Assembly (NCBI GenBank): GCA_032718475.1
Contig: JAUCBJ010003147.1
Coordinates: 3,627 to 67,626, forward strand
Reading direction: 5' to 3'
Length of the DNA stretch: 64,000 nucleotides
DNA from: Nemertoderma westbladi
Taxonomy: Eukaryota; Animalia; Xenacoelomorpha
Part shown: one piece after another, positions 3,712 through 47,099 of the stretch
Numbering within the stretch: position 1 is the stretch's first letter
How the letters are laid out: each line of letters opens with the position of its first letter
Translations under genes and position numbers: made by a program
The notes under the pieces: model-generated
Told to the model about the DNA's origin: nothing
Databases searched by the model: none
The model's input: the letters and a program-made list of their open reading frames with translations, nothing else

Positions 3712-3915
3712 ACATTGTCAGTGCATACATATATGTGTTACATTAAGCCGTCCTGGTAGAACATTGTCAGTATACATACATATATGTGTTACATTAAGCC
3801 GTCCTGGTAGAACATTGTCAGTGCATACATATATGTGTTACATTAAGCCGTCCTGGTAGAACATTGTCAGTATACATACATATATGTGTTACATTAAGCC
3901 GTCCTGGTAGAACAT
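3712..3915. repeat. 49/51-bp minisatellite, ~4 units
   Basis: ACATTGTCAGTGCATACATATATGTGTTACATTAAGCCGTCCTGGTAGA in tandem; same family as 16483-17005. Confidence 0.95.
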
Positions 3916-16482: not shown

Positions 16483-17005
16483 ACATATATGTGTTACATT
16501 AAGACGTCCTGGTAGAACATTGTCAGTGCATACATATATGTGTTACATTAAGACGTCCTGGTAGAACATTGTCAGTGCATACATATATGTGTTACATTAA
16601 GACGTCCTGGTAGAACATTGTCAGTGCATACATATATGTTTTACATTAAGCCGTCCTGGTAGAACATTGTCAGTGCATACATATATGTGTTACATTAAGC
16701 CGTCCTGGTTGAACATTGTCAGTGCATACATATATGTTTTACATTAAGACGTCCTGGTAGAACATCGTCAGTGCATACATATATGTGTTACATTAAGACG
16801 TCCTGGTAGAACATTGTCAGTATACATACATATATGTGTTACATTAAGACGTCCTGGTAGAACATTGTCAGTGCATACATATATGTGTTACATTAAGCCG
16901 TCCTGGTAGAACATTGTCAGTGCATATATATATGTTTTATATTAAGACGTCCTGGTAGAACATTGTCAGTGCATACCATACATATATGTGTTACATTAAG
17001 ACGTC
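16483..17005. repeat. 49/51-bp minisatellite, ~10 units
   Basis: Tandem ACATTGTCAGTGCATACATATATGTGTTACATTAAGACGTCCTGGTAGA. Confidence 0.95.
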
Positions 17006-17260
17006 CACCCCACCCCACCCCACCCCACCCCACCCCACCCCACCCCACCCCACCCCACCCCACCCCACCCCACCCCACCCCACCCCACCCCACCCCACCC
17101 CACCCCACCCCACCCCACCCCACCCCACCCCACCCCACCCCACCCCACCCCACCCCACCCCACCCCACCCCACCCCCACCCCACCCCACCCCACCCCACC
17201 ACCCACCCCACCCCACCCCACACCCCCACCCCACCCCCCCCCCCCACCGCCACCCCCAAC
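17006..17260. repeat. (CCCCA)n microsatellite; (TGGGG)n on minus strand, G-quadruplex-capable
   Basis: More than 30 perfect CCCCA units, degenerating toward 17260. Confidence 0.97.
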
Positions 17261-17358: not shown

Positions 17359-17976
17359 CTACACCACAGCAAGTAGAGCATGGCGGATAATGCTATAGAG
17401 TTTGGCATGGCCAAGGTCACTCAGGTGTATACCATCGGAGTGCAGCAAGGTTCCTCCCTGCACCCGATGGCATAATGCACCTTGCATTTTAATTAGAACG
17501 CCGTTCTGGGCGTGGTTGAACCACGCCGCCATCCGCATATTTGTGGCGACACGACGTGAATCATAATCGGGGTCCACAGACACACCTTTAGGGCGCATTA
17601 ACCTGGGGAACATTTGTGTCCATAACACACAGGAAGCACCATTGGAAGAATATTCCTGAATCATTGACTTTAATTTAGAGACAACGTAATCTGTGTCTCT
17701 CACACACAGATCGTTGCTTCCAAATAGAAGTACAATGAAACAAGGTTTATTGTCCCAATTGGCCATCACCTCCTGCGCGTTATGGGTGTCAAATATTCTC
17801 CCTGACCGCAGCTGAAAGGTAACTTTGGCAACTGTTGGACAGATACCAAAGTTACGATTGTGGCCGCGGTTGTTGTGGTCAAGGTACCGAAAGAGGTGGT
17901 CTGGGTGTGAAGACCCAACGATTATAATTTCATGTACATGATTGACAGTACAAATAGCTTGGACCGGTAGTGGCAT
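17359..17976 (-). CDS. SGNH/GDSL-type hydrolase (esterase), intronless, 205 aa
   Basis: Block I IIIVGSSH, block II SG, block III LLFGSNDL and block V HSDGIHLSDLG are in the correct order and spacing. First ATG is at 17976 (the ORF track starts at an upstream TTG). Confidence 0.88.
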   Translation of the reverse strand: MPLPVQAICTVNHVHEIIIVGSSHPDHLFRYLDHNNRGHNRNFGICPTVAKVTFQLRSGRIFDTHNAQEVMANWDNKPCFIVLLFGSNDLCVRDTDYVVSKLKSMIQEYSSNGASCVLWTQMFPRLMRPKGVSVDPDYDSRRVATNMRMAAWFNHAQNGVLIKMQGALCHRVQGGTLLHSDGIHLSDLGHAKLYSIIRHALLAVV

Positions 17977-18019
17977 AATATCGACTGAATAGAGCAAATA
18001 AGTGGAGAGAAATGGGTAA

Positions 18020-18420
18020 AGTGATGATTTAATATGATACAGCGTTCCGTTTATATAGAAAATTGTAAAGCATATTGATGGTGGAGACAGTTGTTAATTC
18101 AGCGTGTGTATGGTTACGGTGTACATTACGGTGATAATTAGTAATTGATATTGGTTTGTAAATGTGCTGCAATGCAGTCAGGCAGTTGTTTCTCTAAGGC
18201 ATAACCTTCCAATCCAATAATACCATATATGGTAATAATTCCCTTGGTTGCATCATGAAGCCTATTCATTGGTCGTAACATTGAGTAATTCTAACTGCAG
18301 CATACAGTGATATTCCTCTGACAATTTTGTTGGCGGGTTGTGATTGGCTTGCTGGCTGTAATTGGATATAGCTTCAGCCTTCAGCTATATAATTAAATAT
18401 TCAGTTGCCATACTTCATTC
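18020..18420. promoter_or_regulatory. Divergent Pol II promoter region
   Basis: Minus strand: TATATAAA at 18057-18050 with TCA about 30 nt downstream (~18027). Plus strand: TATATAA at 18386-18392 with Inr-like TCATTC at 18415-18420. Several CCAAT/ATTGG boxes lie between (~18209, 18267, 18343, 18361). Confidence 0.6.
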
Positions 18421-20419: not shown

Positions 20420-20742
20420 TACTGGTACTGGTAGCGTATTCTTTCTTCGTATTCGTACAGGTATATATATATTTATATATACCGGTATATATATTTGTGT
20501 CATTGTAATGCTCGAATGAATGTTTAGCCCTAATCGTTCCGAATTTTGGTGGTGTCTTCTGTTTTGTATGTAGCGGTACCGTTATTTTATTTTTATTTCT
20601 ATTTCGTTTTGCCTGTTCATTGCACATAATTAAATATATAGGGTCATAAATAGACATGAATGCGTAGGCCTATGCTGTTCTCTAGATCGGTTGTATTTTG
20701 TTAAATTATTTCTTTAATTTATTATTTTTTATAGATAACGTT

Positions 20743-20991
20743 ATGCCAAAACGAAAGCAATCTTTTGTTTGCTCGTACTGCCAAGGTCGCTGTGGCAAGA
20801 AGCGACACAACAAGGCAACCTGCCCTATGCGCATCGAACATCTGCGGAAAGGGATAGATGCCGCCAACATGGACGCCGGTAGAGAGTTGGAAATAGGTGG
20901 CGTTGGTGACCAACCCATCGGTATTCATGTAGAGATTCCGGGAAGCGCCGATGTCCATCAGACCGGCCGTTTACACGCGGTGGAAGCCAAT
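20743..20991 (+). CDS. Coding exon 1: MPKRKQSFV-CSYCQGRCGKKRHNKATC zinc knuckle
   Basis: Acceptor TTTTTTATAG at 20734, ATG at 20743, donor GTAAGT at 20992; 83 codons. Confidence 0.85.
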
Positions 20992-23900
20992 GTAAGTTTT
21001 ATTTAGGACTAACTTATATTAAGTATTATTCTAAACAGAGGCATGCTTAATACACTGTTTGTACGGCCTGCATACTGTATCTGGGAAACACACCATTATC
21101 TGCACACTATTTAACCCACTTATCTATACCAGGAGATCTGCCATCGTGAGTTACCCTCCTTGATAACCAATCTTGATTTGACTTTTAATCTTACCCACCA
21201 TTGTAACTCTATCTATATTGTCTTTTTACCAGCCATTGTCTACCTCCCTGTTTACCTTCCACCTTATTTGGTAAAGCTCCATTATAAATGTATATGTGCT
21301 GTGGGTCGGAGCTTTAAGGAGAAGGACTTCGATCCAATGTAACATAATAAATTGTGTAATGTTGTAGTATTATGTTGTGCTAATATACTAATTACTATAA
21401 ATTCTACGTACTCCTTATTGTTGCTGTGAAGTGCGGTCATTTCTTTAGTATAGTTTCGTTATAATATGTTATTGTTATTCTTATTTATAATTACAGAATA
21501 ACTATAAGTACCGGTATACTTATGGAACTATAACACCCCCCCTCCCTCACTTAAACGGAATATAAATTTTCTAAAATTAAAAAATACCTACCTATCTCTT
21601 TTTGTTGTTTGAAGTCAGTATAAGTATATCTCTCCGTGTCATTATTTTAAACTGCTACTTTCTAGGTGGAGTTGGATCGCGAGACTCCGGAGGTAGCGGT
21701 CGGACGCGAGACTCCCACTTCTCCATCCTACGCGGACGCGTTGAGATCGCCTCCACGGCCAAGTATCTGTTCTCCGCTGCAACCAACCCCGGTAGGACGC
21801 GGGACTCTCGACGTCACGGTGGGACGCCAGACTCCCCCTACATCTCCATCATACGCCGACGCGTTGAGATCGCCTCCACGGCGACGTACTACCCGTCCGC
21901 CAACACCACCAACGCCGGTTAGTTTAACATATATAAATATGTGGACCTACTTTGTCATTTTATATTTTGTTTCGGTGGTTTTCTAATACAATTACTGCAT
22001 AAAACGATTAGCTGAAGCAATATATACAGTATATACCAGTATATACCTCCCAACACTCTACCCAGAGTCTCTCTTGACTCTTCACCCCGACCCCTCCCCC
22101 ATTAATTCATTGAATCGTACATATTTGTTACATTTTTCTTCTATTTTTTCTCTTCTATCTATTATTTTTAAATTATTTAGGTCGCCAATTCAAAGAGTTG
22201 GTTCCGCCAGGTCGCGGACGATCTCAACCTGGATGTGGTCGACATACCAAACCACCCACTGGCGCAGTTATCTGCGGTTTCAACGGCTGCGGGCTGGGGG
22301 ATATCAGCCACCTATCTGAAACAACACGTGGCCGACTTCATGTTGCTGAGAACGGCCAAGTATTCGCGGCAGTGGCTCTTCCGTACGGGAGGGCCGCAAT
22401 CGTTCGCCGCCTACTTACTTTCATTGGCGTCGGATGATTGCCAGGTTAACGACATCAACCTGGAGGCCATAAGAGATATGGAGGAGATGGAGATCACGGT
22501 CCATCGGGCGCAGCACCGAAACGCGCCAAGTTGTTACTGCGCCCCCCCAAGGAGACGAGGTGGTGCCATCCATATCGGTGTGGACGGCGACCGATACGTC
22601 GCGTTTGTTTCGAGGTCTATCTCGACCCAGTCCGGCCGCGTGACCGAGTCGGAACCGATGGTTAGTTAATACTCTCCCTATAATGTTTCACTGTGTTTTT
22701 CAATAATGTTTGTGTTTATGTCACTGTTACATTAATGTTTGTATAAAAAGTATGTAACAAATACCATGAAATGTCTACAAAATAATTATATTTCCCGAAT
22801 AGACGATGTTACACGGCTATTAATTAATTGAGACGTCGTCATTATTTTTATAGCTTCATATTAATTCCAAATTATTGGTACCGACAATTAAAAACTCCAT
22901 TTCGTTAATAAATATACATTTAGAATTCCTTTAAATACATTTAATATACATGGAATATTAAAATGGAATATGGAATATTATAATACACATTGAATGTACC
23001 TTTAATTTCTTATTAAGTAAATATCAATTATCTCAAACTCCATATTTATAATTAATTGTTTAGGTTCTCCAGGAAGCTATTAAACCTATGGAGGACGTAC
23101 ATAATATCTCAGTCGCAACGGAGTTATTTACTACCGTTGTAGAATCTGATCTGCCCCGTAGATCCTATACGGTGTCCGGCCGTTTAGCTTCCAAACCTCC
23201 GACTGTAAGTGAATCTATATTATATATGTAATATCATATATTCATATATTATTTATTTAATTTGTTAAGAAATAATTTCTTAAATTGTCAGAGGTTAGCT
23301 AAAATGTCACCCTATTTATAATTTATATGCACTTCGACATTTTACAATAATTCCACACTATAATAATATATTTATATAATATTGATTATCGTTATTTTAG
23401 AGTTTTTTTTTGAATTCCCACTTGAACCACGGCGTTTATTTTGAATTGATGAGGAAAGTAACTTTATAATTTGTATTAATATATTAACCTACAGGAGCTG
23501 CATTTAGTTGATAATATTATACGATATAATTTAACCGATATAATTAATTATTTAATTGTTATTTCCACAGAGAACGTCGTCACGTAAAGGGAAGAAGAAA
23601 TTATCAGCTCTGCAAGACGCAACTGATATCAGAGGTGACGCTATGTCTGAATGTTCAGATGTAGGTAGTATCGGCTCTGTCGGTAGTATCGGTTCTATTC
23701 GTAGTGTCGGTACTGCCGGTAGTGTTGGTTCTGTTAGCAGTATGGCGTCTAACGAGTCAACCCGTAGGAGGAACGCCGCTCAAAAGTCCGGCTGTCCGTC
23801 TTCCCGTCCAGAAATCGTAAGTTTACTCAATAAATTATGTAATTAATTAATTATACAGAAACCTAATTAAATGATATTTTTTGTATAATGTATTTAATTA

Positions 23901-26900
23901 ATGGTAACTAACAGAACTCTTGTAAATATTTAATAATTTTTGTACAAATTAAATGACTGGAATACAATTGCATTTCGGTGCTTTAAAACTGAAAATATAA
24001 AATATTTTGTTTTAACTAATTCATATTTTCCCATTTAAATAAAGTTTATTTTATATAATTATTAATATTCCATACGAATGGTAACTTAATTATTTGTTTA
24101 AATTTTAAAGACTATTTTATTCCATAATTTTTAATTTATAGCGTTTATTTTAAAATATTTAATTTAACTAACAGTTAATTATATAATCAACATCAATTAT
24201 TATTTTTATTTTAGTTCACTAAACCAACTAAACGAAAGGGAGGCCAAACGTGTTCCTATTGTCAAGGACGTTGCGGGAAGAGGTCGCATAAGAAACAAAC
24301 CTGTATTATGAGACTCTTCCATGAGAGTAAGGATATATGGGTGGCAAATATGGATGCGGGCATTCTTCTGGAAGTAGTACAGGACGCTGAGATGGACGAA
24401 ATGGCCGCAGAGCCAGAGAGTACTGCTGATATGGACGCGGAATTCTTACAGGATATCGAACACGCGGAATTCTTACAGGATATCGAGATGTTCGATATCG
24501 AGGCCGCCGAGAGTGGCGCTGTCCAGACCGGCCGCGTATCTGATCCAGAACCGATGGTTAGTTAACTTAAATATATCCTAAGCTATATTTACTAAATAAC
24601 CCATAATATTGTCTATATTTCGGCGCACACGTACTGCATCCTATATACACGTTTGTACCATGTACAAATGTAGTGCGTGGATGTACACATGTAGTACATG
24701 GATGTACACATGTAGTACATGGATGTACACATGTACACATGCAGAATACACATGTGGTACATGGATGTACACTAGAGTTGCAACAGAGACCTGTTTTTCT
24801 TAATCCCGGTAAACCAGAGCCCTACCCAGAGAATTATTTTGAAAAATACCGGAGACCAGAGCCAGAGATCAGAGACTTGGCTTATTTTTGTTCTTCCATT
24901 TTGATTAGTCCCATAAAGCACAAACAGGTACATATGGATGGACTGAAACTATTTTTATATGGTTGAATTACAGTAACTCCAACCCATATGAACCCTTACC
25001 AATTGAAATAAAATAAGCGCACGTACAGTTTACTTAATTAATATTAATTTGGTTATTTGTTTATTAATTCGTTCTTATTTTGTCATTGTTAATAATATGT
25101 TACATAAATTTGTTTTGCGCCATAGGTACCGGTACTTTGTTAAGTAAAGGCACTTATTTTACAATTGTTCAAATCATATACATTTCAATAGACTATAAAC
25201 TTAGTAAATTACGAATACAGTGCACAGGTATGGTACTCTACTCGCCCCATATGCAAGCCTCGTTACGCTCGTTCTCTTCATTTGGTCTTCATATTATCTA
25301 TCCTACAACAAGTTGAACGGAGATCAGCCCTTTCTTTCACTTTTAAACATTATGGGTGCTCAAATTAAGCACCTTTATCCTTAAATAAGAACGACCTTTA
25401 GGTGCTAATTTAATTTAAAATTAAACGCACCTTAAATTAATAAATGTAAATATAATTATTATCGGTACATTTAGTTTGAGTCAGATTTAGAGTTAGATTA
25501 AAAACAGTGTAAAAGTGAATGTATAATTTTGTTGAAGCTGAGTATTAAAAATAAAAATTAAAGAAATTATTAATTGTAAAAAATTTGTGAAAAATAATCT
25601 TCATTTCACATTTTGTGTTGTACAGGATCTATTTTTAAATATCTATTTTTAATTTGTAAAATCACTGATCTCTGGGTAAAATGTCTGTTTTCAATACCCG
25701 GGAACCAGAGACCCATCCAGAGACTAAAAAATTACCCGGAGAATCCAGAGATCAGTGACAGGTCTCTGTTTCAACTCAATGTACACATGTGGTACATGGA
25801 TGTACACATGTGGTACATGGATGTACACATGTGGTACATGGATGTACACATGTGGTACATGGATGTACACATGTGGTACATGGATGTACACATGTGGTAC
25901 ATGGATGTACACATGTGGTACATGGATGTACACATGTGTTACATGGATGTACACATGCGGTACATGGATGTACACATGTAGTACATGGATGTACACATGT
26001 ACCGCACCCTATATACACGATTGTACCATGTACAAATGTAGTACGTGGATGTACACATGTAGTACATGGATGTACACATGTAGTACATGGATGTACACAT
26101 GTACACATGCAGAATACACATGTGGTACATGGATGTACACATGTGGTACATGGATGTACACATGTGGTACATGGATGTACACATGTGGTACATGGATGTA
26201 CACATGTGGTACATGGATGTACACATGTGGTACATGGATGTACACATGTGGTACATGGATGTACACATGTGGTACATGGATGTACACATGTGGTACATGG
26301 ATGTACACATGTGGTACATGGATGTACACCTGTGGTACATGGATGTATACATGTGGTACATGGATGTACACATGTGGTACATGGATGTACACATGTGGTA
26401 CATGGATGTACACATGTGGTACATGGATGTACACATGTGGTACATGGATGTACACATGTGGTACATGGATGTACACATGTGGTACATGGATGTACACATG
26501 TGGTACATGGTTGTACACATGTGGTACATGGTTGTACACATGTGGTACATGGATGTACACATGTGGTACATGGATGTACACATGTGGTACATGGATGTAC
26601 ACATGTGGTACATGATGTACACATGTGGTACATGGATGTACACATGTGGTACATAGATGTACACATGTGGTACATGGATGTACGCATGTGGTACATGGAT
26701 GTACACATGTGGTACATGGATGTACACATGTGGTACATGGATGTACACATGTGGTACATGGATGTACACATGTGGTACATGGATGTACACATGTGGTACA
26801 TGGATGTACACATGTGGTACATGGATGTACACATGTGGTACATGGATGTACACATGTGGTACATGGATGTACACATGTGGTACATGGATGTACACATGTG

Positions 26901-29900
26901 GTACATGGATGTACACATGTGGTACATGGATGTACACATGTGGTACATGGATGTACACATATGGTACATGGATGTACACATGTGGTACATGGATGGTACA
27001 TGGGTGTACACATGTAGTGCATGGATGTACACATGTAGTGCATGGATGTACACATGTAGTGCATGGATGTACACATGTAGTGCATGGATGTACACATGTA
27101 GTGCATGGATGTACACATGTAGTGCATGGATGTACACATGTAGTGCATGGATGTACACATGTAGTGCATGGATGTACACATGTAGTGCATGGATGTACAC
27201 ATGTAGTGCATGGATGTACACATGTAGTGCATGGATGTACACATGTAGTGCATGGATGTACACATGTAGTGCATGGATGTACACATGTAGTGCATGGATG
27301 TACACATGTAGTGCATGGATTTACACATGTAGTTCATGGATTTACACATGTAGTTCATGGATTTACACATGTAGTTCATGGATGTACACATGTAGTTCAT
27401 GGATGTACACATGTAGTTCATGGATGTACACATGTAGTGCATGGATGTACACATGTAGTGCATGGATGTACACATGTAGTGCATGGATGTACACATGTAG
27501 TGCATGGATGTACACATGTAGTGCATGGATGTACACATGTAGTGCATGGATGTACACATGTAGTGCATGGATGTACACATGTAGTGCATGGATGTACACA
27601 TGTAGTGCATGGATGTACACATGTAGTGCATGGATGTACACATGTAGTGCATGGATGTACACATGTAGTACACTGGATGTACACATGTAGTACACTGGAT
27701 GTACACATGTAGTACACTGGATGTACACATGTAGTACACTGGATGTACACATGTAGTACACTGGATGTACACATGTAGTACACGTACACATGTAGTACAG
27801 TACACGTACACATGGAGTACAGTACACGTACACATGGAGTACAGTACACGTACACATGGAGTACAGTACACGTACACATGGAGTACAGTACACGTACACA
27901 TGGAGTACAGTACACGTACACATGGAGTACACTACACGTACACATGTAGTTCACTACACGTACACATGTAGTACACTGGATGTACACATGTAGTACACTG
28001 GATGTACACATGTAGTACACTGGATGTACACATGTAGTACACTGGATGTACACATGTAGTACACTGGAAGTACACATGTAGTACACTGGATGTACACATG
28101 TAGTACACTGGATGTACACATGTAGTACACTGGATGTACACATGTAGTACACTGGATGTACACATGTAGTACACTGGATGTACACATGTAGTACATGGGT
28201 GTACACATGTAGTACATGGGTGTACACATGTAGTACATGGGTGTACACATGTAGTACATGGATGCACACATGTAGTACATGGATGCACACATGTAGTACA
28301 TGGATGCACACATGTAGTACATGGATTTACACATGTAGTACAGTAATACACGTACACATGGAGTACAGTAATACACGTACACATGGAGTACACTACACGT
28401 ACACATGTAGTACACTACACGTACACATGTAGTACACTGGATGTACACATGTAGTACACTGGATGTACACATGTAGTACACTGGATGTACACATGTAGTA
28501 CACTACACGTACACATGTAGTACACTACACGTACACATGTAGTACAGTACACGTACACATGTAGTACAGTACACGTACACATGTAGTACAGTACACGTAC
28601 ACATGGAGTACAGTACACGTACACATGGAGTACAGTACACGTACACATGGAGTACAATAATACACGTACACATGGAGTACAGTAATACACGTACACATGG
28701 AGTACACTACACGTACACATGGAGTACACTACACGTACACATGTAGTACACTACACGTACACATGTAGTACACTGGATGTACACATGTAGTACACTGGAT
28801 GTACACATGTAGTACACTGGATGTACACATGTACAGTACACGTACACATGGAGTACAGTACACGTACACATGGAGTACAGTACACGTACACATGGAGTAC
28901 AGTACACGTACACATGGAGTACAGTACACGTACACATGGAGTACAGTACACGTACACATGGAGTACAGTACACGTACACATGGAGTACACTACACGTACA
29001 CATGTAGTACACTACACGTACACATGTAGTACACTACACGTACACATGTAGTACACTACACGTACACATGTAGTACAGTACACGTACACATGTAGTACAG
29101 TACACGTACACATGTAGTACAGTACACGTACACATGGAGTACAGTACACGTACACATGGAGTACAGTAATACACGTACACATGGAGTACAGTAATACACG
29201 TACACATGGAGTACACTACACGTACACATGTAGTACACTGGATGTACACATGTAGTACATGGGTGTACACATGTAGTACATGGATGCACACATGTAGTAC
29301 ATGGATGCACACATGTAGTACATGGATGCACACATGTAGTACATGGATTTACACATGTAGTACATGGATTTACACATGTAGTACATGGATTTACACATGT
29401 AGTACATGGATTTACACATGTAGTACATGGATTTACACATGTAGTACATGGATTTACACATGTAGTACATGGATTTACACATGTAGTACATGGATTTACA
29501 CATGTAGTATTTCCGGTAGCTATCATAGTATAATTAATTGTAATTAACACTTAATTTTTTTTCCTTTTAGGATACGGATACAAACACTCCAATTCGTTTA
29601 GATTCATTAAGAACACGTATCCTTTTGGGACCCACCTGCATGCTCCCTAGTGTCTCACCATTAGTCGTCCCTTCATTCTCCCCTAGAATGGAGACTCCTG
29701 CCTTTTCACCATTGGCTAGATGTACTCCCACGTTTTCCCCACTCGTGGATGTTTCTCCTGGTGGCTACTCTGATCAGTCGCAGTCGACGCCGGGCATTCT
29801 ATCACCGTTTTTGAGGATGTCTGCAGTAGAGACGCCCCCTCGCTCACAATCCCGTCGACCAAAGCCACTGAACATTCGTCCACGGCGGGAGCGAGGGGGT

Positions 29901-30735
29901 CGTATAATCGGGGTGAGTTGATATAATTTTGTAGTAAAGCTTTTGGTTGAGTCGAATGAATTAAAAGTATTTTGTATAGTTGTTTGTTTTTCTATGGTTT
30001 TAGTGAATGTTGATTAAGATGCTTATTGATATATATAACGAAATTGTTTCTATTTCAATTTAATGCTTTCTAAGTCTGTTATTTATTTATTTATACTGAA
30101 ATTATTGTATTTTTCTGTATATTCTATAAATAATAATCACCCAATAATTACAGTTAATGAAACACAGCTAATTCAATAAGCATATTTCTATAGTCAATGA
30201 AACACACAGATTGGTGATTGCAGTATAGCTGTTTTTGTTGTGGCATTATTCGTTATTTCAGAGGTACTTACAGTTTGATTTATGTTTATTTTAGGATCCA
30301 ACTGGTTCAGGAACCTGTACCCCTTTCTCCACCCCAACTATGAGTCCTCGCACAGATTCTCCCGTGTTTCGGTTTGACGATGACTCAATTCGCCGGCTTA
30401 ATTCTAAGTCCGGGAAGGATACTCCTCCCCGATTTCTATCACGGCGACTATCTCCCTATGTTGTTCTATCACGTAAGGATATTGTATCAAGTCCAACACC
30501 GGATGTTGGACTAAACGCAGTACCATCTCCACCCGACGTGTTACCCAGCACAGAAATTGTACCTGGAGTGTTACCAACCGCGCCTCGTGCAACACGACAC
30601 ACACCCAGTGCGGCACCACAATCTAGTTCTAGAACACCACACACATCGACCTCAACACCCCGCCCGTCGGGTGCAACAACACAGCCTTCAAATGCAAATC
30701 CGCAGCCTTCAACATCGGGCGGGGTCCCGTCAATG
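20743..30735 (+). CDS. Spliced gene, at least 831 aa and 3'-incomplete: join(20743..20991,21666..21917,22181..22660,23064..23204,[23401..23457],23571..23816,24215..24556,29571..29912,30295..30735); two zinc knuckles, pseudo-OTU domain, S/P/T-rich regions
   Basis: GC-richer open exons sit in AT-rich introns. Each has a pyrimidine-rich YAG acceptor and a GTAAGT/GTTAGT/GTGAGT donor. Every coding exon length is a multiple of 3 and the joined frame has no stop. Confidence 0.85.
21666..21917 (+). CDS. Coding exon 2: Pro/Ser-rich, duplicated TSPSYADALRSPPR motif
   Basis: Acceptor TTTCTAG, donor GTTAGT at 21918; 84 codons. Confidence 0.82.
22181..22660 (+). CDS. Coding exon 3: OTU-like cysteine protease fold lacking catalytic residues
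   Basis: Acceptor TATTTAG, donor GTTAGT; 160 codons. LNLDVVDIPNHPLAQLSAVS...LKQHVADFM...FAAYL..L..D...DINLEAI...ITV...IHIG..GDRY follows the OTU pattern. Confidence 0.75.
23064..23204 (+). CDS. Coding exon 4 (47 codons, VLQEAIKP...SGRLASKPPT)
   Basis: Acceptor TGTTTAG, donor GTAAGT at 23205; open in phase 0. Confidence 0.8.
23401..23457 (+). CDS. Possible 19-codon mini-exon (SFFLNSHLNHGVYFELMRK)
   Basis: Acceptor TATTTTAG, weaker donor GTAACT; open in phase 0. Confidence 0.4.
23571..23816 (+). CDS. Coding exon 5: basic patch plus (V/I)GS tripeptide repeats
   Basis: Acceptor TTTCCACAG, donor GTAAGT at 23817; 82 codons. Confidence 0.82.
24215..24556 (+). CDS. Coding exon 6: second zinc knuckle CSYCQGRCGKRSHKKQTC plus acidic region
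   Basis: Acceptor TTTATTTTAG, donor GTTAGT at 24557; 114 codons; paralogous to coding exon 1. Confidence 0.85.
24629..24772. repeat. Start of the 21-bp intronic satellite, separated from the main array by a MITE
   Basis: GTACACATGTAGTACATGGAT units; this block recurs at ~25999-26140. Confidence 0.85.
24773..25778. mobile_element. hAT-like MITE, ~1.0 kb, with 8-bp TSD
   Basis: Left TIR TAGAGTTGCAACAGAGACCTGT; right end ACAGGTCTCTGTTTCAACTCA. ATGTACAC flanks both sides (24765-72, 25779-86). Multiple subterminal CCAGAG motifs at both ends; no transposase. Confidence 0.8.
25779..29508. repeat. 21/22-bp intronic minisatellite with sequential variant domains
   Basis: GTACACATGTGGTACATGGAT, then GTACACATGTAGTGCATGGAT, then 22-bp GTACACATGTAGTACACTGGAT / GTACACATGGAGTACAGTACAC, then TTACACATGTAGTACATGGAT. 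Confidence 0.98.
29571..29912 (+). CDS. Coding exon 7: S/T-P rich (repeated FSP motifs)
   Basis: Acceptor TTCCTTTTAG, donor GTGAGT at 29913; 114 codons. Confidence 0.83.
30295..30735 (+). CDS. Coding exon 8: S/P/T-rich, ends in an open donor with no in-phase downstream exon found
   Basis: Acceptor TTTATTTTAG, donor GTGAGT at 30736; 147 codons. Confidence 0.83.
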
Positions 30736-30767: not shown

Positions 30768-31836
30768 GTGAATCAATTGTCACGTAATTATGTAAGTGAA
30801 TCAATTCCCATGTAATTATGTAAGTGAATCAATTGCCACGTTATTATGTAAGTGAATCAATTGTCGCGCAATTATGTAAGTGATTCAATTGTCGCGCAAT
30901 TATGTAAGTGAATCAATTGTCACGTAATTATGTGAGATAATGAATTGTCATGTAATTATGTTAGTGAATAAATTGTCATGTAATTATGTAAATGAATAAA
31001 TTGTCGCGCAATTATGTAAGTGAATCAATTGTCACGTAATTATGTAAATGAATCAATTGTCATGTAATTATGTAAGTGAATCAATTGTCACGTAATTATG
31101 TGAGATAATGAATTGTCATGTAATTATGTTAGTGAATAAATTGTCATGTAATTATGTAAATGAATCAATTGTCGCGCAATTATGTAAGTGAATCAATTGT
31201 CGCGCAATTATGTAAGTGCATTTGTCACGTTATTATGTAAGTGAAACAGTGAATCAATTGTCACGTAATTATGTAAGTGAATCAATTGTTACGTTATGTA
31301 AGTGAATCAATTGTCACGCAATTATGTAAGTGAATCAATTGTCACGTAATTATGTAAGTGAATCAATTGTCACGTTATAATGTAAGTGAATCAATTGTCA
31401 CGTAATTATGTGAGATAATGAATTGTCATGTAATTATGTTAGTGAATAAATTGTCATGTAATTATGTAAATGAATCAATTGTCGCGCAATTATGTAAGTG
31501 AATCAATTGTCGCGCAATTATGTAAGTGCATTTGTCACGTTATTATGTAAGTGAAACAGTGAATCAATTGTCACGTAATTATGTAAGTGAATCAATTGTT
31601 ACGTTATGTAAGTGAATCAATTGTCACGCAATTATGTAAGTGAATCAATTGTCACGTAATTATGTAAGTGAATCAATTGTCACGTAATTATGTAAGTGAA
31701 TCAATTGTCACGTTATTATGTAAGTGAATCAATTGTCACGTTATAATGTAAGTGAATCAATTGTCGCGCAATTATGTAAGTGAATCAATTGTCACGTAAT
31801 TATGTGAGATAATGAATTGTCATGTAATTATGTAAG
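30768..31836. repeat. 28-bp minisatellite (~38 units) with a 310-bp higher-order duplication
   Basis: Unit GTGAATCAATTGTCACGTAATTATGTAA; the variant GTGAAACAGTGAATC occurs at 31241 and 31551. Confidence 0.96.
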
Positions 31837-33422
31837 ACAATCAAGTCTCACACATAGATCTCGTTTTACGTAGAATTTGTAATACCCAAAGACCTTTTGG
31901 AGGAAAGTTATTTATTGGCTGTGGAGATCACAAACAGCTAGAGCCAGTTGAGGGTAGAGTTGTCTGGCTTAGTACACACTTTTTAACAACCTTTAAAGTA
32001 GCTGTTTGTAGACATTTTGTCCGTAGTGCCAACGATCAAGAATTACAGCTTGTTATAAATATCTTGCGGTCAACAAATCCATCTCCAAATGAAATTGATC
32101 AAATGATTAATATCCTAAAGAGGCGTTGCAATTTTGTTGATACCTGGGAAGATGTCCCAGATGATGTGTTAAAGGTTGTAGGCACTAGGGCTGGTGAGCA
32201 GGAGGTATTAAAGAAATATCTGGACCGGCACCGAAATGAGTACGGAACTGTAATTATTGATAGTATTGATCAGGTCAATAACGGTAATCCAGCGGAGGAG
32301 CAATCTTGGAAAGAAACGCAAGCTACAAACATTATTACCTCAATAACAAAGTCTTGTCGTGAACCAAGACAATTGGTGTTATTTCTTAATCAGATTCTCC
32401 GATTTACATTTAATCGTTATTCTGTGCAACCACAATTTTCAAATGGTCAATTACTCTTTGTTACAAAGGTACCCACTGATAGAACAGATAGATTACATGG
32501 GGCTATTGTCCCTAAAGGTTGCCGCCGTGTCAATTCAGAGGTTGCACAAACCTGGCCTATCGTTAAACTAGAGCAGCGTAAAATGCCCCCTCCTACTACT
32601 GTTGGTTATGGTAGGAATACTATCATGGGGAGGCGAATACAATATCCTGTACGTTATTTTGGAGCGAGCACTATTCATGGTGTTCAAGGTCAAGGTACAC
32701 CTTCTATAGCAACCCAGATAACTATGGACAAACAGAGTACATATAAAATTTGGCTTAAAACCCAAGTAACAACTTTAATCTCAAGAGTATATTTCCTTGA
32801 CCAATTTACGTTTGTTGGGCCCACGGATGAAACTTTTAATTGTGTTAGGGTTTTAGCTAATAGAAAATCTCCAAATCAAGAGTATGTAGATCAGTTACTG
32901 CATAGTCTCAATATTCTTGATGGGCCACCACAGGAGCCAATAGCACTTGCTGACCATCCTTTCTTGCCATACTATATCGACATTCCTTCATCCCATACGG
33001 GATTTGTATATATGTTGATTAGCGTCAGATTTCCTAATGTTGTTACTTATATAGGGCAAACTGAGGAACTGAAAGCTCGGTTAAATGCTCACCAGAATAA
33101 GACAGGGTCTGAATTCACAAGAAATCCAGCCTACCATCCCTGGGCGCTTTATGCATTTGTAAGTGGCTTTCCTGGTGAAGCAAAGAGTGCACTCAATACT
33201 GATTACCGTAAGGAATTTGAGACTCAATGGCACCATGATACTGATACCAACAGAAGTGGTGGTAATACAACTCATAGTAGAGAATATATCTATAACATTG
33301 GGATTGAGATTGTACGTCAGTATAACACTGATCATTTATATCATGATGAAAATGAAGATCCTCAGAAATTTGAATTGATAATGGTTCAATGTCAACGTAT
33401 AAATGTTATTGCCAATGAATAA
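31836..33422 (+). CDS. 5'-truncated PIF1-family (SF1B) helicase fused to an SLX1-like GIY-YIG endonuclease; 528-aa stop-to-stop frame
   Basis: The frame is open upstream of the ORF-track start: HIDLVLRRICNTQRPFGGKLFIGCGDHKQLEPV (motif III), HFVRSAND (IV), RRIQYPVRYFGASTIHGVQGQ (V, ~32631), QVTTLISRV (VI, ~32763). From 33000: GFVYMLIS..TYIGQT..LKARLNAH..GSEFT..PWAL..VSGF..FETQW. Walker A/B absent. Confidence 0.88.
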   Translation, partial: DNQVSHIDLVLRRICNTQRPFGGKLFIGCGDHKQLEPVEGRVVWLSTHFLTTFKVAVCRHFVRSANDQELQLVINILRSTNPSPNEIDQMINILKRRCNFVDTWEDVPDDVLKVVGTRAGEQEVLKKYLDRHRNEYGTVIIDSIDQVNNGNPAEEQSWKETQATNIITSITKSCREPRQLVLFLNQILRFTFNRYSVQPQFSNGQLLFVTKVPTDRTDRLHGAIVPKGCRRVNSEVAQTWPIVKLEQRKMPPPTTVGYGRNTIMGRRIQYPVRYFGASTIHGVQGQGTPSIATQITMDKQSTYKIWLKTQVTTLISRVYFLDQFTFVGPTDETFNCVRVLANRKSPNQEYVDQLLHSLNILDGPPQEPIALADHPFLPYYIDIPSSHTGFVYMLISVRFPNVVTYIGQTEELKARLNAHQNKTGSEFTRNPAYHPWALYAFVSGFPGEAKSALNTDYRKEFETQWHHDTDTNRSGGNTTHSREYIYNIGIEIVRQYNTDHLYHDENEDPQKFELIMVQCQRINVIANE

Positions 33423-36400
33423 GTTATTGACTTTCTGAATATTATTAGGCAATACTTTTGACCATTTTTATCAATTTATATCTCGTAAATTATAGCCATT
33501 ACTTATATAGGGATACGCATTTAATATTGTGAGTAATCTTAGGAAAACATTTGCGTATCACAACATATAATATAGATATTCTATTGTAAAAAAAATAAAG
33601 AATATCATTATATTCATATATATTATTATAGCAATGTCAATATATATTATCATAGCTTAAGATAACACTTAAAGCTACTTATAATAGCTTAAGATAACAC
33701 TTAAAGCTACTTATAATAATCTGGGAATATATCACTCTTAATAATTGATACTAAGAAAGGCTATCAATAACATAGATATTCTATTATGAAAAACTGCTTT
33801 AAAGTATATGAAAAGCTTAACAAAGAATATCATATATTATGAATATATATTATTATAGCAATGTGAATATATATTATCATAGCTTAAGTGTTATATGGCT
33901 CAAATTCAATTTTTATCAAATTTTACTTTTGATACTTTTTATACATACTTTTTATACAATTCCATATTTTAAGTAATGATTTATCAGCTGATGAAGTTTT
34001 GAACATTTTTAACCAATGGCAAGTGATGATTTATGCTAAAGTGAAGCACTATATCCTAGTGAACATTACTTTACTGCAGAAAAGCCCTTGGGCAATATTT
34101 TACTGCAGAAAGGCCCTATATGTCTCTAAATTTATTCTTCTGAATAATTTCAATGGCTCCTGAATAATTTCAATTTTTACTTAATTATTGAATAATATGT
34201 GCTTAATTTACTTCTATTTTTGAACCTTATAACACTTAAAGCTACTTACATTATAAACTGGGTAGATATCACTCTTAAATGATACTAAGAAAGGCTATCA
34301 ATACATTAGTATCTAACTTTAACTGTACCCAGTTAATACTCAGTCATTAGTTGAGACTGGCATTAGTGTCTAAGCCAATTTAAAATATTCATAATAATAA
34401 GAATATAGCTTAGACTAAAATATGAGTATGCCACAATGTTTATATACTTATAATCTATAATCTAATAATAATAAATAATATAACTAATAGAAAATACTAT
34501 AAAATAATTTATATATATTATATATCATATAGTTTTTAAAATTAAATTATGATTTTTAAACTTTAATTTAATGTAATTTTTTTATATAGTAAAAAATTTG
34601 AATATATTTTATACCTATTTATTTTATATAAAATTTGAATATATTTTATACTTCTATTTTTATTTTTCTATATTTTTATTTAATATATTTATAATTTTAT
34701 ACTTATAATTTTATATTTATTTATATATTTATTTATATATTTGATATATATTGTTTTCTATAACGAATGAAAAATTTAAACAAATTGTTAAATGAATATA
34801 TTCTTTTGATAAATTGCTGTTTAATTTGTTATGACAATTTGGTGCAATATTGTCTTACAGCCATTCATTTCATCCATCTGTGCTCTAAGTAACCCTATAA
34901 ACGGCTCTGCTGAACAGTATAGATTACAGTAGAAAATCATATCATCTTCACTCACTTTCCCTAAAGTTAGCTGAGTCATATCATTGGCTGTTAAAATGAT
35001 TGTTTGCATCACATTGAATGGTGACATACTAAAACAGCATTATATATATTCTAATAATAATTCAATTTGTTAAAATTATCTTGATTCACTATATAAACAA
35101 TCTATATATCAAATATAATAAATAAATAATACTATTCATTATTTATATTTTATTTTAGTAATAATTAAATTATGAAATAATAATTATAATAATTAATTAA
35201 AAAACAAATAATTATATAACTAAATAAATTAGATATTGTGGCATACTTTATCCTGGTTTCTATTGCCAGAGTTTTATTGCCAGTTTACTTCACAGTAAAC
35301 TGAAATATTATACTGTAGCACAGTATAATATTATATTGGTGAGGATAGGTATGGCTAATGGGGAGATGGGAGGCCATACTCATAACAATATGTTATGATA
35401 TAATAAAGTGCTATAGTATAATATAATTTGGTGAGGATAGGTATGGCTAAAGGGGAGATGGGAGGCCATACACTCATAACAAATTGTTATGATTATATTC
35501 GATTTCATAAATTGACGAAATCATATATAAAACACCCTAAAATGCTTAGATGTAACTTATAGAGAACCCAATAATTGAGAGTTTCTCCATTGCGGTACTG
35601 AAATGTATCCATATCATTGATCTACATATTAGGGTGTTTTAATTTTAAACTTAAACTTTTATTCAAAATTGTTAGTATATCTTTAACTATTAATTAATTT
35701 ACAGTACTATAATTATATAATGGTTTTCTATAGAATAAGGTAGTATTTTATAAACTTTTATATTTTTTTCTTGACTCATTTTCAGCTTGTCGATCATCAT
35801 CAATTATTAGCAATAACTGCCATATTATCATTCTTCATCATCATCATCAATCATATGTGCTTCATCATAACTAATCTGAAGTAATCTTATATCGCAAATA
35901 ATAAGTTCTAATTAAAATATTTTGGAGTAGTATATAGTTTGTATATTATTTTGCAAAGCCTGAAATAGCCATTCTTATAAATTGACATTTCAAAACTATT
36001 TTGTGATATTGACCATTCTCAAAAATGGTCTTCAATTATACAAATATAATATTGACAAAATTATATATGAAACACCCTAAAATGCTTAGATATAACTTAA
36101 TAAATGGAATAGTTTGAGTCAAAAACTCAACAGGAACCCAACAATAATTGAGAGTTCCAGGACTGAAAAGTCCTTATCTAATTTCCATTGTGGTACTGAA
36201 ATGTATCCATATCATTGATCTAACATATTGGGATGTTTTAATTTTTTATCAAAAATTTTAAGTATATCTTGAACTATTAATTAATTTATAATATTATATT
36301 TACTTCATGGGTTTTTATAGCATAAGGTAGTATTTTATAAACTTATATATTTTTTTTGAACTTATTATTATTAGGTTGTCCATTATCATCAATTATTACC

Positions 36401-36900
36401 AATAACTGCTATATTATCATTCTCCATCATCTACCAAATCTGTTACATCATAACCAATTTCAAGTAATCCTGTATCATAAATAATAAGTACTACATTATC
36501 ATTAATCATAAGTTATCTAGTTCTCTATTATTATTATTTTATTACCAGTGATCATAACTGTGATTATAATGAATTTACTTTGATTAATTTCATCTCTTAT
36601 TATAAATTATAGTATTGCTTTTCTTAATATTATTATTATATTATTAATATTATTATATTAATATTATTATTCATTATTAATAGCTTACAAATTTTAATAT
36701 TCAAATATATTATATTAGAATGATATACTTATATTTAATACTTCATTAAAATTGTTTTGAAGTAATTACTATATATCATAAATAATCTTCATTATCATCA
36801 ATCATAAGTGCTCCAGTTCTCTATCCATCAACTATCAATATTTGCTAGTACTCAATTATCATAAGTGCTTATTATCAAAAATATATTATAATAAATATTA

Positions 36901-37529
36901 GGCACTAGTAAAGGAAAAGAATCCATAAATTATTTTTTCTAATATAAATTTTATTGTGAATAATTCTTGGATATATATTATGATTTGATTGTTACATAAA
37001 TCTTGTTACATCTTTTGAGAGACATTACCTATTTTTGTTAATAAAAGCAAGTTTTTTTAAGGCAACTCTTTTTAAAATTATAAACCCAATTTTTATTACC
37101 TACTTTTTAATAAAAACATTAGACTTTTAATAGATTTTTTTCATTTTTTTTTGTTCTAGAATATAAATTTTTCCCTCTATGCTATATATTGTTTTTTTAT
37201 GTAATATTTTTAATATTATAATAGAAAATTTCAGTGCGTATAGAATTTTCTTACTATCTAATTAATAATAGGTACTATCTAATAGAAAAATTAAATTACT
37301 GATATTCCTTATAATTTGATTTTTACTGCTCAAAATTGATTTACAATTTCTATATTATAATTATAATTTTTTTAATTAGCTAATAATAAGTAGTAGGTAA
37401 TGAATTTCTTATTCTAATTTAGACCTCATATAAAGAAAAACAAATTTTTTTCTATATACCTTTAATAATTATAATATAAAGTAACAAAAACACATTTTTA
37501 TTTTGGATTTGTTTTCCTCTACTAGTGCC
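36901..37529. mobile_element. Old AT-rich MITE-like element (possibly PIF/Harbinger), copy 1
   Basis: GGCACTAGTAAAGGAAAA ... TTTTCCTCTACTAGTGCC inverted termini. Left flank TTA, right flank AAA (TSD imperfect). Confidence 0.6.
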
Positions 37530-38476
37530 AAATATAGGTGAGGTACGGTATGGCTGAAGGGGTGTTGGGAGGCCATATATTATAATATTTTTTTATAATA
37601 CTGCCAACATAACTTCTTTATCATCATGAATCATATCTCGAACTATGCTCCATCATTACATTACCAATCTGAACTAATCCTCTATAAAGTTCCCATTATC
37701 AATCTATCATAAGTAATCATAAGTATTACTTTTCTTAATAATATTATTATATTATTATTATTATTATATTATTATTATTATTAATTATTCATTATTTATT
37801 AATAGCTTATAATTTTTAATATTCAAACTATTAGAATAATATACTTATATTTAATACTTCATTAAATTTGTTTTGAAGTAATATACTACTATTACTGATA
37901 AATTCATCCATTGACAAAATTATATATGAAACACCCTAAAATGCTTAGATGTAACTTAATAAATGGAATGAGTCAAAAACTCAACTGGAGCCCAATAATT
38001 GAGAGTTCCTCCATTGTGGTACTGAAATGTATCCATATCATTGATCTAACATATTAGAGTGTTTTAATTTTAAACTTAAACTTTTATCCAAAATTTTAAG
38101 TATATCTTGAACTATTAATTAATTTATATTATTATATTTACTATAATTATTATTATTATATTAATATTCATTATTAATAGCTTATAAGTTTTAATTGAAA
38201 CTAAACTTGAAATACTAATTAATTTACATTTTTATATTTACTTCATGGTTTTGTATGTAGTACTTTATAAACTTTATATTTTTTTGGAACTCATTATTAG
38301 CTACCAATAACTGCTATATTATCAGTCTCTATCATCACCTACCAAATATGTTCCATCATTATCATTAATCATAAGTGCTCCAGTTCTCTTTATCTTCAAT
38401 TATCAATATTTGCAAGTACTCCATTGTTTACAAATCATAAGTGCTTATTATCAAAAATATATTATAATAAATATTA

Positions 38477-39119
38477 GGCACTAGTAAAGGAAAAGAATCC
38501 ATAAATTATTTTTTCTAATATAAATTTTATTGTGAATAATTCTTGATTATATATTATGATTTGATTCTTACATAAATCTTGTTACATCTTTTGAGAGACA
38601 TTACCTATTTTTTTTTAATAGAAGGTAAGTGTTTTTTAAGGTAGCTCTTTTTAAAATTATATAACCAATTTTTTCAATCTATCAATAATTTCAATCAATA
38701 ATCCAATCTAGAACATAAATTTTTCCCTCATGGTATTTTGTAAGAAGTGTTTTTTAAGGTATGTTATGTTTTTAATATTATAATAGAAAATTTTTGTGAG
38801 TATAGAATTGTTCTTACAACATAATAATAGGTACTATCTTATAGAAAAGTTAAATTACTGATATTCCTTATACTTTGTTCGAATTTAGACCTCATGAAAC
38901 ATAATTATTTTTACTAGTTCAAAATTGATTTACAATTTACATATTATAATTATATATTTTTTTAACTATCTAATAATAATTAGTAGGTAATGTCTTCTTT
39001 ATTCCAATTTAGACCTCATGTAAAGAAAATCAAAATTTTTTTTCTAATGTACCTGTAATAATTATAATATAAAGCAACAAAAACACTTTATTTTTGGTCC
39101 GTTTTCCTCTACTAGTGCC
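38477..39119. mobile_element. Old AT-rich MITE-like element, copy 2 (carried by segmental duplication)
   Basis: Same termini and same flanks as 36901-37529. Confidence 0.6.
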
Positions 39120-42044
39120 AAATATAGGTGAGGTTCGGTATGGCTAAAGGGGAGTTGGGAGGCCATATATTATAATATATTTTTTATAGTACCCTTAATA
39201 TACCTTCTTTATCATCATGAATCATAACTGCTTCATTATTTATACCATACTACATCATAAATAATAAGTTCTCCATTATTTTACTTCATGCTTTTGCATA
39301 GAAAAAAATAAGGTAGTAGTACTTTATAAACTTCTATATTTTTTTCTTGATCTGAAAGCTTTTAATTTTTTGGTAAGCTTGCATCATCATCAATTATTAC
39401 CAACACCTGCTATATTATCCATCACCAATCATATGCACCATCATTACCAATCTGATAAGTAATCCTATATCATAAATAATAAGTTCTGCATTATCATCAA
39501 TCATAAGTGATCCAGTTTTCTATCATCAATTATCAAAACTATATTATATAATTATGATTATTATTCTTGATTCTTGATTTTTATTATTTATTTTTATTAT
39601 TATTATTCTTATTTTTTTTTAATACTTCATTTAATATTTAGCATTTAATAATATTTATATTATAGGAATTAAGCAGTCTTTGTATACAATTTAGTATGGG
39701 TCAATTAGTATAGTGCTTTTTATATTTTATTCAAATCCTCTATAAAATAGTACATTATTTTTTTATATTTATTTAGATAATTTTATTTCTAATTCATTTA
39801 TAATTTAATCGTAATTATGATAGTATTTATATTTATGTAAGTGTATCATATAACTATATAGTATATTATAGGAACTTCTACTCATACTTCTATTTACTAG
39901 TATATATGCTCGACTATATAAAATTGTTTTACTATTATATAACAGTAGAAAATACTACAAACATTAGAAAATAAATAATATACAAAAACTAATTAAAATT
40001 TATATTCAACACTATTCTATAAAAAATACATATGCAATACAAATTTACTATTAGTGATAGTAAGGGAATAGTTTATAGGATATTTTCAAGACTAAGAACA
40101 ACTTAATAGTAATAATTTAATTTTAACTTATATATTTTTCCTTTAATTCAGATGTTTATACAAAAGTTATTGTTAAGGATAAGATGTCATGATATTATTA
40201 CTATCCATTATTGAATTACAAATGAATATAAAATGAGCTTATACAGATCATACATATCTTAAGTCAGCTATTTATAGATAAAGATATTAGTTTACTTCAT
40301 AATATTTACAAATATCAATGATGAAGCAAGTATAAAGATCACATCATAATCATACTCATCAGGAATGGCAATGAAAGAGTAATCAACAATTAAGATTAAA
40401 TATAATCAACTTCTATCACATGAAGCAAGTTATAAAGATCACATACTGGTAATCAAAGTGTAACCCTTTTTTTATCTTTTTTTTTTGATCCAGTTCCCTA
40501 TCATCAATTATTAATACTTTTATATAATTATAATTATTCTTTTAATAATTTATTTATTATTATTATTATTATCCAGAATATTTACAAACTCCATATTGTA
40601 CAGTAGACCAAAAATATAATGAGATATTAATCTTCTTTGTATTGAGTAAATTTATATGAGAATAAATTCATGAACCACTTTTATCTAATTATGAAACGTT
40701 ATAGGAAAAATACAATATTGTAGACCAACAATATATGTAATTCTACAATAAAAGGATAATTATACACAGCATAGTAAGAGTAAAATACATTTAATAAAGT
40801 AGATATTATATACTGTATGTTAAATCAAGTCACCAGTAAATTATAGTTTTGCATTATATGAATTCGTAGTATCACTGCTGTTTGCTGTTGTTATGCTTGT
40901 ATTTTAAGTAATTTGGTATGGGTCTTTAGCATTTTTTTATGGTCCAATCAATATAGTATTTTTATTTAAAAGAGTACTATTTGAATTATAAGATTCCTTA
41001 TCAATGCCCAGATAATTTTTATATATTTTATTATTTATATTCAAGTTGTAAGCTAATTTTATTTAAAAAATATTATACTTATACTTAATTTATTATTAAT
41101 TTATTATTATAGTATATATATATTTCTAAAAAAATTATATATTATAGGAACCTGTACTCATACCCCTACTTATAGTATATATGCTAGGGGCTATGTATAA
41201 TTATTAAATATTTTAAACTAGGAATAATATAACACTAAATTATATTGTAGTTCAATATATATTTTTTTTCTTTTATTCAGATTATATTCTAATGATATTT
41301 ATTAATGGGGATTTGTAATGATTTAACACCCTCGATATGATTGTCTACAATGTTTAGCAACTATGTAAAGATTTTGTATATTCTTCAATAACAATAAGGA
41401 TAAAACCACTCTTGATAGATATTCATCAATAATGCAAGCAATATATATAACAAAAAATTTGATATGCATTTGAAATATAATTTCAAAATTAAATAATGGT
41501 CCTTGCATTCCTAATATATGGTCGTGCCATCTGGGATGTAGTATGGCTCCGTTGGAAAAGTAAGAAATTTTATTTCATTTATTGTTTTGGTTCTATGTAA
41601 TATATTTTTATTTTTTTGTCATCTTTGTATTTCTAGCATCATTAAGAATTAGATATATATGGCAGTGCAAGCGAAAAGGTTACCTTAAGGTTAAAATGTT
41701 GTTTTGATAAAATTGCACTTTAAGAAAGCGTCTCATCTGGAGTGTATTGTTGTATCGTTGCAAAGTAAGAAATTTTGCTTTATTTATTGTTTTGGTTCTA
41801 TCTAAAGGTTAAAATGTTATTTATTGTTTTGGTTCGATCTAAAGGTTAAAATGTTGTTTTGATGAAATTGCACTTTAAGAAAATTTAATTTAAAAGAAAT
41901 TTAAAAATGTTAAATTTCTTTATTTTTTTGTTATATATGTCCAATATAATATAATAATATAATATAATATGTGTTTGAGATAGTCCACTTTGAAGGAATT
42001 TAAATTTTTATTTAAAAATATTCAATTTCGTTATTTTTTCTCGT

Positions 42045-46869: not shown

Positions 46870-47095
46870 TATCGTTGTCTTCTTAGTCGTCGTCTTCTTA
46901 GTTGTTGTCTTCTTCGTCATCGTCTTCTTTGTCGTCATCTTCTTCGTCATCGTCGTCTTCTTCATCGTCGTCTTCTTCTTCGTCGTCATTGTCTTCTTCT
47001 TCGGTGTCGTTCGTTATCCTTTTCTTTGTTGTCTTCGTTGTCTTCGTTTTTATTGTCTTCGTCGTCTTCTTCTTTTTTGTCTCCTTCGTCTTCTT
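46870..47095. repeat. Degenerate (TCT/TCG)n trinucleotide microsatellite
   Basis: TCTTCTTCGTCATCGTC runs. Confidence 0.9.
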
Positions 47096-47099
47096 TTTT

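Follow-up and report, generated by a model that had tools for sequence, protein, structure and literature searches.

Probable 3′ remnant of a Helitron-like transposase gene with a predicted SLX1-type GIY-YIG nuclease domain in Nemertoderma westbladi

Helitrons and Helitron-like elements (HLEs) move by rolling-circle transposition, for which a nick by Rep, peeling of a strand, circle formation and integration are established in the available parts of two accounts (PMC13085455, PMC6431247). Canonical Helitrons (HLE1, such as Helraiser, structure 7lcc) have a Rep-PIF1 core and no C-terminal nuclease. Helentrons (HLE2), as far as the accessible text of PMC4067079 and PMC11417382 describes them, encode one large Rep(HUH)-PIF1 protein with a C-terminal nuclease, which is an AP endonuclease, and in some cases an OTU domain. 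HelenSM92, an HLE2 family of Sphagnum moss, carries a GIY-YIG domain, which the accessible part of PMC11417382 mentions in a single sentence and in the Fig. S8 legend, and "HLE Paramecium" is presented in that of PMC13085455 as a third Helitron clade with frames of 9-10 kb amid satellites. Here we describe a 64,000-nucleotide stretch (the window) of Nemertoderma westbladi DNA (GCA_032718475.1, contig JAUCBJ010003147.1, positions 3,627 to 67,626, forward strand), in which an open frame on the + strand, 31836..33422, joins part of a PIF1 helicase to a GIY-YIG nuclease domain. This frame is very probably the surviving 3′ fifth of a Rep-helicase-GIY-YIG gene in a non-autonomous Helitron-like copy, which appears to belong to a widespread, little-described lineage of such elements.

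The frame comprises 528 codons from stop to stop. An earlier note, made from the letters alone, had read it as an in-frame fusion of PIF1 and an SLX1-like nuclease with a linker of about 70 residues, and this reading held: all motifs that it named are present, and 72 amino acids separate helicase motif VI from the FVY of the nuclease. Motifs III (GDHKQLEP, residue 30), IV (residue 60), V (TIHGVQG, residue 279) and VI (QVTTLISR, residue 310) mark the C-terminal part of a PIF1 helicase at 31854..32909, from which motifs I, Ia and II are absent. The nuclease domain at 33000..33404 has FVY at residue 390, YIG at residue 405, R415, H419 and E462; the Tyr (Y392 and Y405), Arg, His and Glu positions are intact, as had been proposed. 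Pfam recognized GIY-YIG (E=1.5e-8, 35.2 bits against a cut-off of 22.6), and PIF1 scored 20.1 bits, below its cut-off of 25.9, with a weak piece at residues 6-39, because most of the PIF1 model is absent from the frame.

Both domains were also assigned by structure, through the AlphaFold and Foldseek check that the earlier note had suggested. The AlphaFold model (input alignment of 32 rows) had a predicted local distance difference test score (pLDDT) of 85, and Foldseek ranked Pif1 helicases first (top E=2e-13). In VIA comparisons, residues 1-359 matched Pif1 7otj (Z 21.1, root-mean-square deviation 4.2, 303 residues aligned) and the Helitron transposase 7lcc (Z 16.8), and residues 386-522 matched SLX1 6seh (Z 11.0, deviation 2.2, 105 residues aligned) and HIGLE (Z 10.8). 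A profile built from ten family nuclease domains found SLX1 proteins in the PDB at E values of 4e-13 to 7e-10 and UPF0213 at 2e-4 and 6e-4, in agreement with the SLX1/UPF0213 branch named in the note. By fold, catalytic Tyr/Arg/His/Glu and best match, the domain is of SLX1 type. SLX1 proper has a C-terminal RING finger, which binds SLX4; neither Pfam nor reading of the frame, which ends at residue 528, revealed a RING finger. The family domain resembles SLX1, At-HIGLE and UPF0213 in fold and catalytic residues and differs from them in being fused to a helicase, ending the protein and having no RING; its nuclease activity is predicted.

Word-indexed protein searches returned no longer relative and one of similar length, and the family was found only by a HMMER scan, which gave 843 cluster representatives at E≤1e-3 and 177 at 1e-30. 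Among the best 150 of the 843, which were examined, 49 are 1500-3596 amino acids long. Walker A is present in all 49, and so is an HUH Rep upstream of the helicase (H-x-H in 49/49, E-x-Q in 48-49/49, two Tyr in 47-48/49), a count that is partly circular in that the profile was built partly from those same 49 rows; a profile built solely from HLE1/HLE2 rows also recovered 33 of them. Alignment of the family with an HLE2-type Rep-helicase (RepHel) by hhalign gave 99.7%. Eighteen long relatives were examined with Pfam, which found Helitron_like_N in 13 (15-33 bits in long relatives, against a cut-off of 28.9), GIY-YIG in 15 and OTU in five, and neither DUF6570 nor AP endonuclease (Exo_endo_phos) in any. 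Judged by these motifs, the full-length relatives are RepHel transposases of the Helitron-like kind that carry GIY-YIG at the C-terminus, and an HUH Rep with two Tyr upstream of PIF1 in one protein characterizes the family and is absent from the window copy. The link to rolling-circle intermediates suggested earlier is supported.

The nuclease is a regular part of the family. Its core was covered by 134 of 151 matches, most of the other 17 ending early, which identifies a conserved fusion and not a one-off chimera, and of the 131 relatives that cover the four catalytic positions, 97 retain them all. The canonical motif V, T[IV]HKSQG, occurs in none of the 151 members, and T279, H281, G285, S316 and R317 are kept in 146-150 of them. 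The unusual motifs V and VI, in which the note had seen a divergent clade, are thus a family-wide trait. Giant single frames of family type occurred at 22 metagenome loci, two of which add a Ulp1 protease after the nuclease, and members were also found on contigs of 657 and 724 kb. One member has a named host, the hagfish Myxine glutinosa, with an annotated genome; the top Atlas cluster was eukaryotic, with diatoms the commonest among the five entries assigned to a phylum. As a separate observation, an Ulp1 (Peptidase_C48) or OTU protease follows the nuclease in some members (L006, 2-6169; L011, 1-5412; P0030).

An independent PIF1-SLX1 enzyme of repair or recombination in which unwinding is coupled to cutting, close to what the note had envisaged, would accord with the good fold of both domains in one model and with the many database matches of 400-800 amino acids that cover just helicase plus nuclease. 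We find it scarcely credible: the window has no Walker A/B, Rep is present in every match of at least 1500 amino acids, and clusters of short matches hold longer forms (P0002, 581 amino acids, with P0155, 1012; P0006 with P0158, 2467), so the short matches look like fragments. The self-standing two-domain protein gave way to a Rep-helicase-nuclease transposase of 2200-3600 amino acids as the unit.

What the window holds is the end of such a gene. In a profile of full-length relatives that is 2253 positions long, the frame aligns to 1747-2237; the rest of the window matched neither this profile nor the Rep profile nor any of 77 relatives of at least 1000 amino acids. No Rep or Walker A was seen in the six frames of the window, and the 528-residue frame has motifs III-VI only, without Walker A or Walker B (motifs I-II) and with no Met before residue 90. 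It starts within the final unit of a 28-bp satellite (30768..31851, 38.6 copies) that abuts the break, and its first six codons (31836..31853, + strand) overlap that degenerate unit and are not found in siblings. Contigs from X1, X2 and X3, sequencing runs of one organism, the window's own, match the window from 31854 on and have differing letters before it. One X1 contig shows 5 differences over 31854-32618 (765 bases) and then continues upstream with 906 letters of other sequence; in an X2 contig, the 30 loose letters upstream of 31854 are in frame, stop-free and, by eye, like the stretch after motif II of relatives. It is likely that the Rep domain and the front half of the helicase were lost by deletion at the adjoining satellite. 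Given this loss of Rep and of the ATP-binding half, the copy cannot unwind DNA as it stands, in conflict with the coupled unwinding ascribed to it earlier, and its mobility would depend on intact copies.

The same junction could reflect an assembly mis-join inside the 28-bp satellite, the real locus being an intact element. Near-identical contigs of other runs do continue upstream of 31854 with other sequence, no contig among the matches listed spans the junction, and the window is largely satellite. However, contigs omit rare variants, and the depths of exact X1 contigs (27-43 over upstream exons and 106-117 over the frame, depth being no measure of copy number) fit several near-identical copies, of which no more than one would have to carry the deletion. 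The want of a bridging contig among the matches listed makes a mis-join possible, and deletion is likely; we judge a mis-join improbable, though the most serious of the alternatives, and retain a truncated copy as our reading.

The family was placed by a Rep tree, with RepHel frames on contigs of a prokaryote genome set, classed by Pfam, and P0176 as references. The careful version (178 columns, 43 rows; a thin five rows per reference group) is a quick 65-row tree minus 22 rows (long branches, one gappy row and close kin). In it the family Rep formed a single clade (99/97) nested within the Helitron-type Reps (100/100 versus prokaryotic Reps), separate from HLE1 (100/99) and HLE2 (97/93), each of five rows. 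HLE1 and HLE2 grouped without the family at 91/72 only, and approximately unbiased (AU) tests rejected neither sister position (family with HLE2, p-AU 0.38; with HLE1, p-AU 0.40). A position of the family basal to HLE1+HLE2 (SH-aLRT 96 in the quick tree, 91/72 in the careful one) is not claimed. In the helicase tree, which has no HLE1 row and carries a long-branch warning, the window protein fell inside the family (100/99), nearest to P0020 (87/91), a protein of 3596 amino acids whose N-terminus has zinc knuckles, low-complexity sequence and OTU. Two side observations concern the prokaryotic set. Eukaryote-type Helitron/Helentron RepHel frames occur in prokaryotic bins (L067, L071, L078, L088, L090, L100, L027, L048), probably through binning contamination, and a large set of prokaryotic HUH Reps (L026-L103, many actinobacterial), used here as outgroup, has WKxEFQxRGAPH, near Helitron Rep motif 2.

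Compared with Helentrons, the family shares the large Rep-PIF1 protein with a C-terminal nuclease, the occasional OTU domain and a homologous Rep, and differs in having an SLX1-type GIY-YIG instead of the AP endonuclease. In addition, DUF6570 is present in 3/5 HLE2 references and 0/18 long family members, Helitron_like_N scores 15-33 bits in the family against 93-100 in HLE2 references, and the family Rep motif 2 region (GNxPHxH) is, by eye, about 13 residues longer. Canonical Helitrons share the Rep-PIF1 core and the helicase fold (Z 16.8) and differ by their lack of a C-terminal nuclease; with the family helicase profile Helraiser scored 70.8 bits, no higher than cellular or bacterial Pif1 (60-79 bits). 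HelenSM92, compared by its description in the accessible part of PMC11417382, is likewise a Helitron-like element with GIY-YIG, classed as HLE2 by its authors. HLE Paramecium, also compared by description, resembles the family in its very long frames, its position outside HLE1/HLE2, its varied satellites and its derivatives that lost the frame, and differs in inserting in telomeric repeats and in that no GIY-YIG is mentioned in the available part of PMC13085455; it and the family may or may not be one clade. As far as their accessible text extends, PMC8788227 does not mention GIY-YIG, and PMC3627910, PMC6431247 and PMC12910113 mention it only for other elements. A clade with RepHel and GIY-YIG fused in frame was not described in any paper found by a search that did not extend to subscription journals, Repbase Reports and bioRxiv supplements.

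Most members lie on environmental contigs with one giant frame, and in one of them (L018) direct repeats of about 200 bp flank the gene, as might suit a virus or linear-plasmid replicon and not a chromosomal transposon. This is very improbable. A scan of viral contigs returned one distant helicase only, with no match for the HLE2 query or two Rep patterns, and 31 frames from 14 loci included no capsid or polymerase family. Members were also found on the 657- and 724-kb contigs and in the annotated hagfish genome, and the window copy sits among spliceosomal introns and satellites. The L018 repeats (96% and 81%; 9240-9450 and 17960-18167) enclose the whole RepHel-GIY gene and could mark tandem or circular forms. 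At another locus, L015, inverted repeats of 134 bp (97%; 5781-5914 and 12731-12864) enclose 6.8 kb, and this segment contains three frames right after the RepHel-GIY gene.

Near-identical and about 85% similar copies occur in the runs of the one organism. Silent changes make up 21 of the 33 listed in-frame differences, where 22% would be expected (p=3e-7), in a test that uses the best-supported differences only, taken from pooled copies. This excess suggests that the family was recently selected for its protein; the element is multi-copy, with purifying selection on its coding part. Run X4 is catalogued as "DNA?", and its contigs are joined across predicted GT..AG introns of an upstream eight-exon gene (20991-21666, 23816-24215 and exon 4 to exon 5). 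One X4 contig spans 32168-33608, with 17 differences from the window and some variants that recur in X3; it stops at 33608, where its loose end closes in AAA just past AATAAA, and its 5′ loose end resembles a template-switch adaptor. From the joined introns and these ends, X4 is likely cDNA, and the helicase-nuclease stretch of a sibling copy is likely transcribed. Downstream of the frame, a 3′ untranslated stretch (33497..33617, + strand) is common to diverged sibling families, whose contigs match 33497-33593; it contains an inverted repeat (33504-33519/33552-33567) and AATAAA at 33594-33599, and a poly(A) site likely lies near 33617.

The eight-exon gene (20735..30735, + strand) keeps one frame across exons 20735-20991, 21666-21917, 22181-22660, 23064-23204, 23571-23816, 24215-24556, 29571-29912 and 30295-30735, and all its introns are in phase 0. 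It has CCHC zinc knuckles in exons 1 and 6 and Ser/Pro/Thr-rich exons, three of its introns are joined in X4, and many copies at 80-95% identity cover exons 1-6. The knuckles resemble the N-termini of P0039, P0167 and P0020 (0-4/500 shuffles for exon 1), targets that were picked for having knuckles, which occur in 3/64 long proteins. A 21-bp satellite (25779..29509) lies inside intron 6. Exons 1 and 6 are paralogous (20743-20830, 24215-24380; a common knuckle and the residues after it), and exons 3 and 6 end in 43 identical bases, suggesting that the gene grew by internal duplication. Further upstream, an SGNH/GDSL hydrolase frame (17359..18093, − strand; Pfam Lipase_GDSL E=5e-6) has, by eye, the block I Ser, block III Asn and DxxH. 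It is multi-copy, with diverged contigs in X1-X3, had no homolog in 23 related loci and no cover in the cDNA-like X4, and is possible cargo. The whole 17.3-24.6 kb stretch is multi-copy, matched by 522, 843 and 321 contigs from X1-X3, most of them less than 99% alike. Both upstream genes probably belong to the same element, the eight-exon gene likely as its 5′ gene.

A domesticated or re-used gene would make of the stump a short protein of helicase fragment and nuclease, serving host or element and spliced to the eight-exon gene or started internally. In its favor, the stump reads through without a stop and keeps its catalytic residues, splicing is seen in the upstream gene, and cDNA-like X4 has one contig over 32168-33608. 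However, with its 17 differences and variants in common with X3, that contig represents a sibling copy or another individual; no strong in-frame acceptor lies near the frame start; and a young copy in a family under purifying selection would be expected to have kept its frame open. We regard such re-use as quite unlikely.

Several points weigh against reading the locus as the stump of a Helitron-like transposase gene with the upstream genes in the same element, among them the lack of a bridging contig among the matches listed, the partial circularity of the Rep count and the pooling of copies in the silent-change test. No strong phase-0 splice acceptor joins exon 8 to the frame, and an X4 contig runs from the start of "intron 8" into satellite, which would allow the eight-exon gene to be a separate one that ends there. 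Its exon 3 is weakly OTU-like, 8/2000 shuffles scoring as high, and had no Pfam, PHROGs or BLAST match as OTU, with a single-sequence fold at pLDDT 34. At least one of the four nuclease residues is missing in 34/131 relatives, and Pfam matched no GIY-YIG in P0171, the member from hagfish; the nuclease may thus be dispensable. In a search for element ends, neither 33380-35600 nor self-BLAST nor eight related loci yielded a convincing terminal repeat or pair of hairpins, and neither an insertion site nor an empty site was found. HLE1-type ends (5′ TC, 3′ hairpin with CTRR, A/T insertion) were not located in the window, nor were HLE2-type ends (asymmetric terminal inverted repeats, hairpins, TT insertion) in the window or the eight loci.

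The remaining sequence is mostly repetitive. A compound satellite (2-17257) has a 66-bp array of about 237 copies that is interrupted at 3040-3915; after the array, at 15455-17006, come the same C-rich stretch as at 3040-3915 and 49/51-bp repeats, and then (CCACC)x50. By analogy with Paramecium Helitrons the compound satellite may lie inside the element. The AT-rich region 33560-39500 (21-25% GC), with scattered duplications of 80-330 bp at 72-91% identity, may contain the 3′ end. Arrays at 42046-62802 have 49/98/217/243-bp, 42-bp (47 copies), 459-bp and 480-bp units and a GTC/TCT run (46872-47099). Long frames at 10051-11241 and 25728-29550 were rejected as genes, being satellite read-throughs.

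In intact copies, the motifs suggest transposition in which the HUH Rep would cut a single strand at one end of the element and attach to that end through a tyrosine, and the PIF1 helicase would peel off a strand that forms a circle and integrates; the window copy would be unable to perform the nicking and peeling itself. The SLX1-type domain may trim flapped or branched DNA, either at the fork where the strand is peeled off or at the joint formed on insertion. We favor this role with some confidence, since the closest solved relatives are SLX1 and HIGLE. Target nicking, hypothesized in the accessible part of PMC4067079 for the Helentron AP endonuclease at the position where the family carries GIY-YIG, is a more doubtful candidate by analogy, and dispensable cargo ranks last.

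These results bear on the way in which Helitrons complete their integration and on the reason for the extra nuclease of Helentrons. Helitron-like elements were already known, as was one mention of GIY-YIG in a moss HLE2; the variant described here has a fused nuclease of SLX1 type. That a nuclease was captured a second time, independently, at the C-terminal position, and that its catalytic residues are kept in 97/131 relatives, suggests a real nuclease-aided step in rolling-circle transposition. Because its scores lie at or below the Pfam Helitron cut-off, the family is probably under-annotated in eukaryotic genomes. On an evenly balanced judgment, it may represent a third ancient and widespread eukaryotic rolling-circle lineage apart from HLE1 and HLE2, reaching from protists to hagfish and missed by current Helitron profiles, whose Rep-PIF1 proteins of 2200-3600 amino acids have a motif V/VI variant of their own and, fused to them, an SLX1-type nuclease that would process a branched transposition intermediate.

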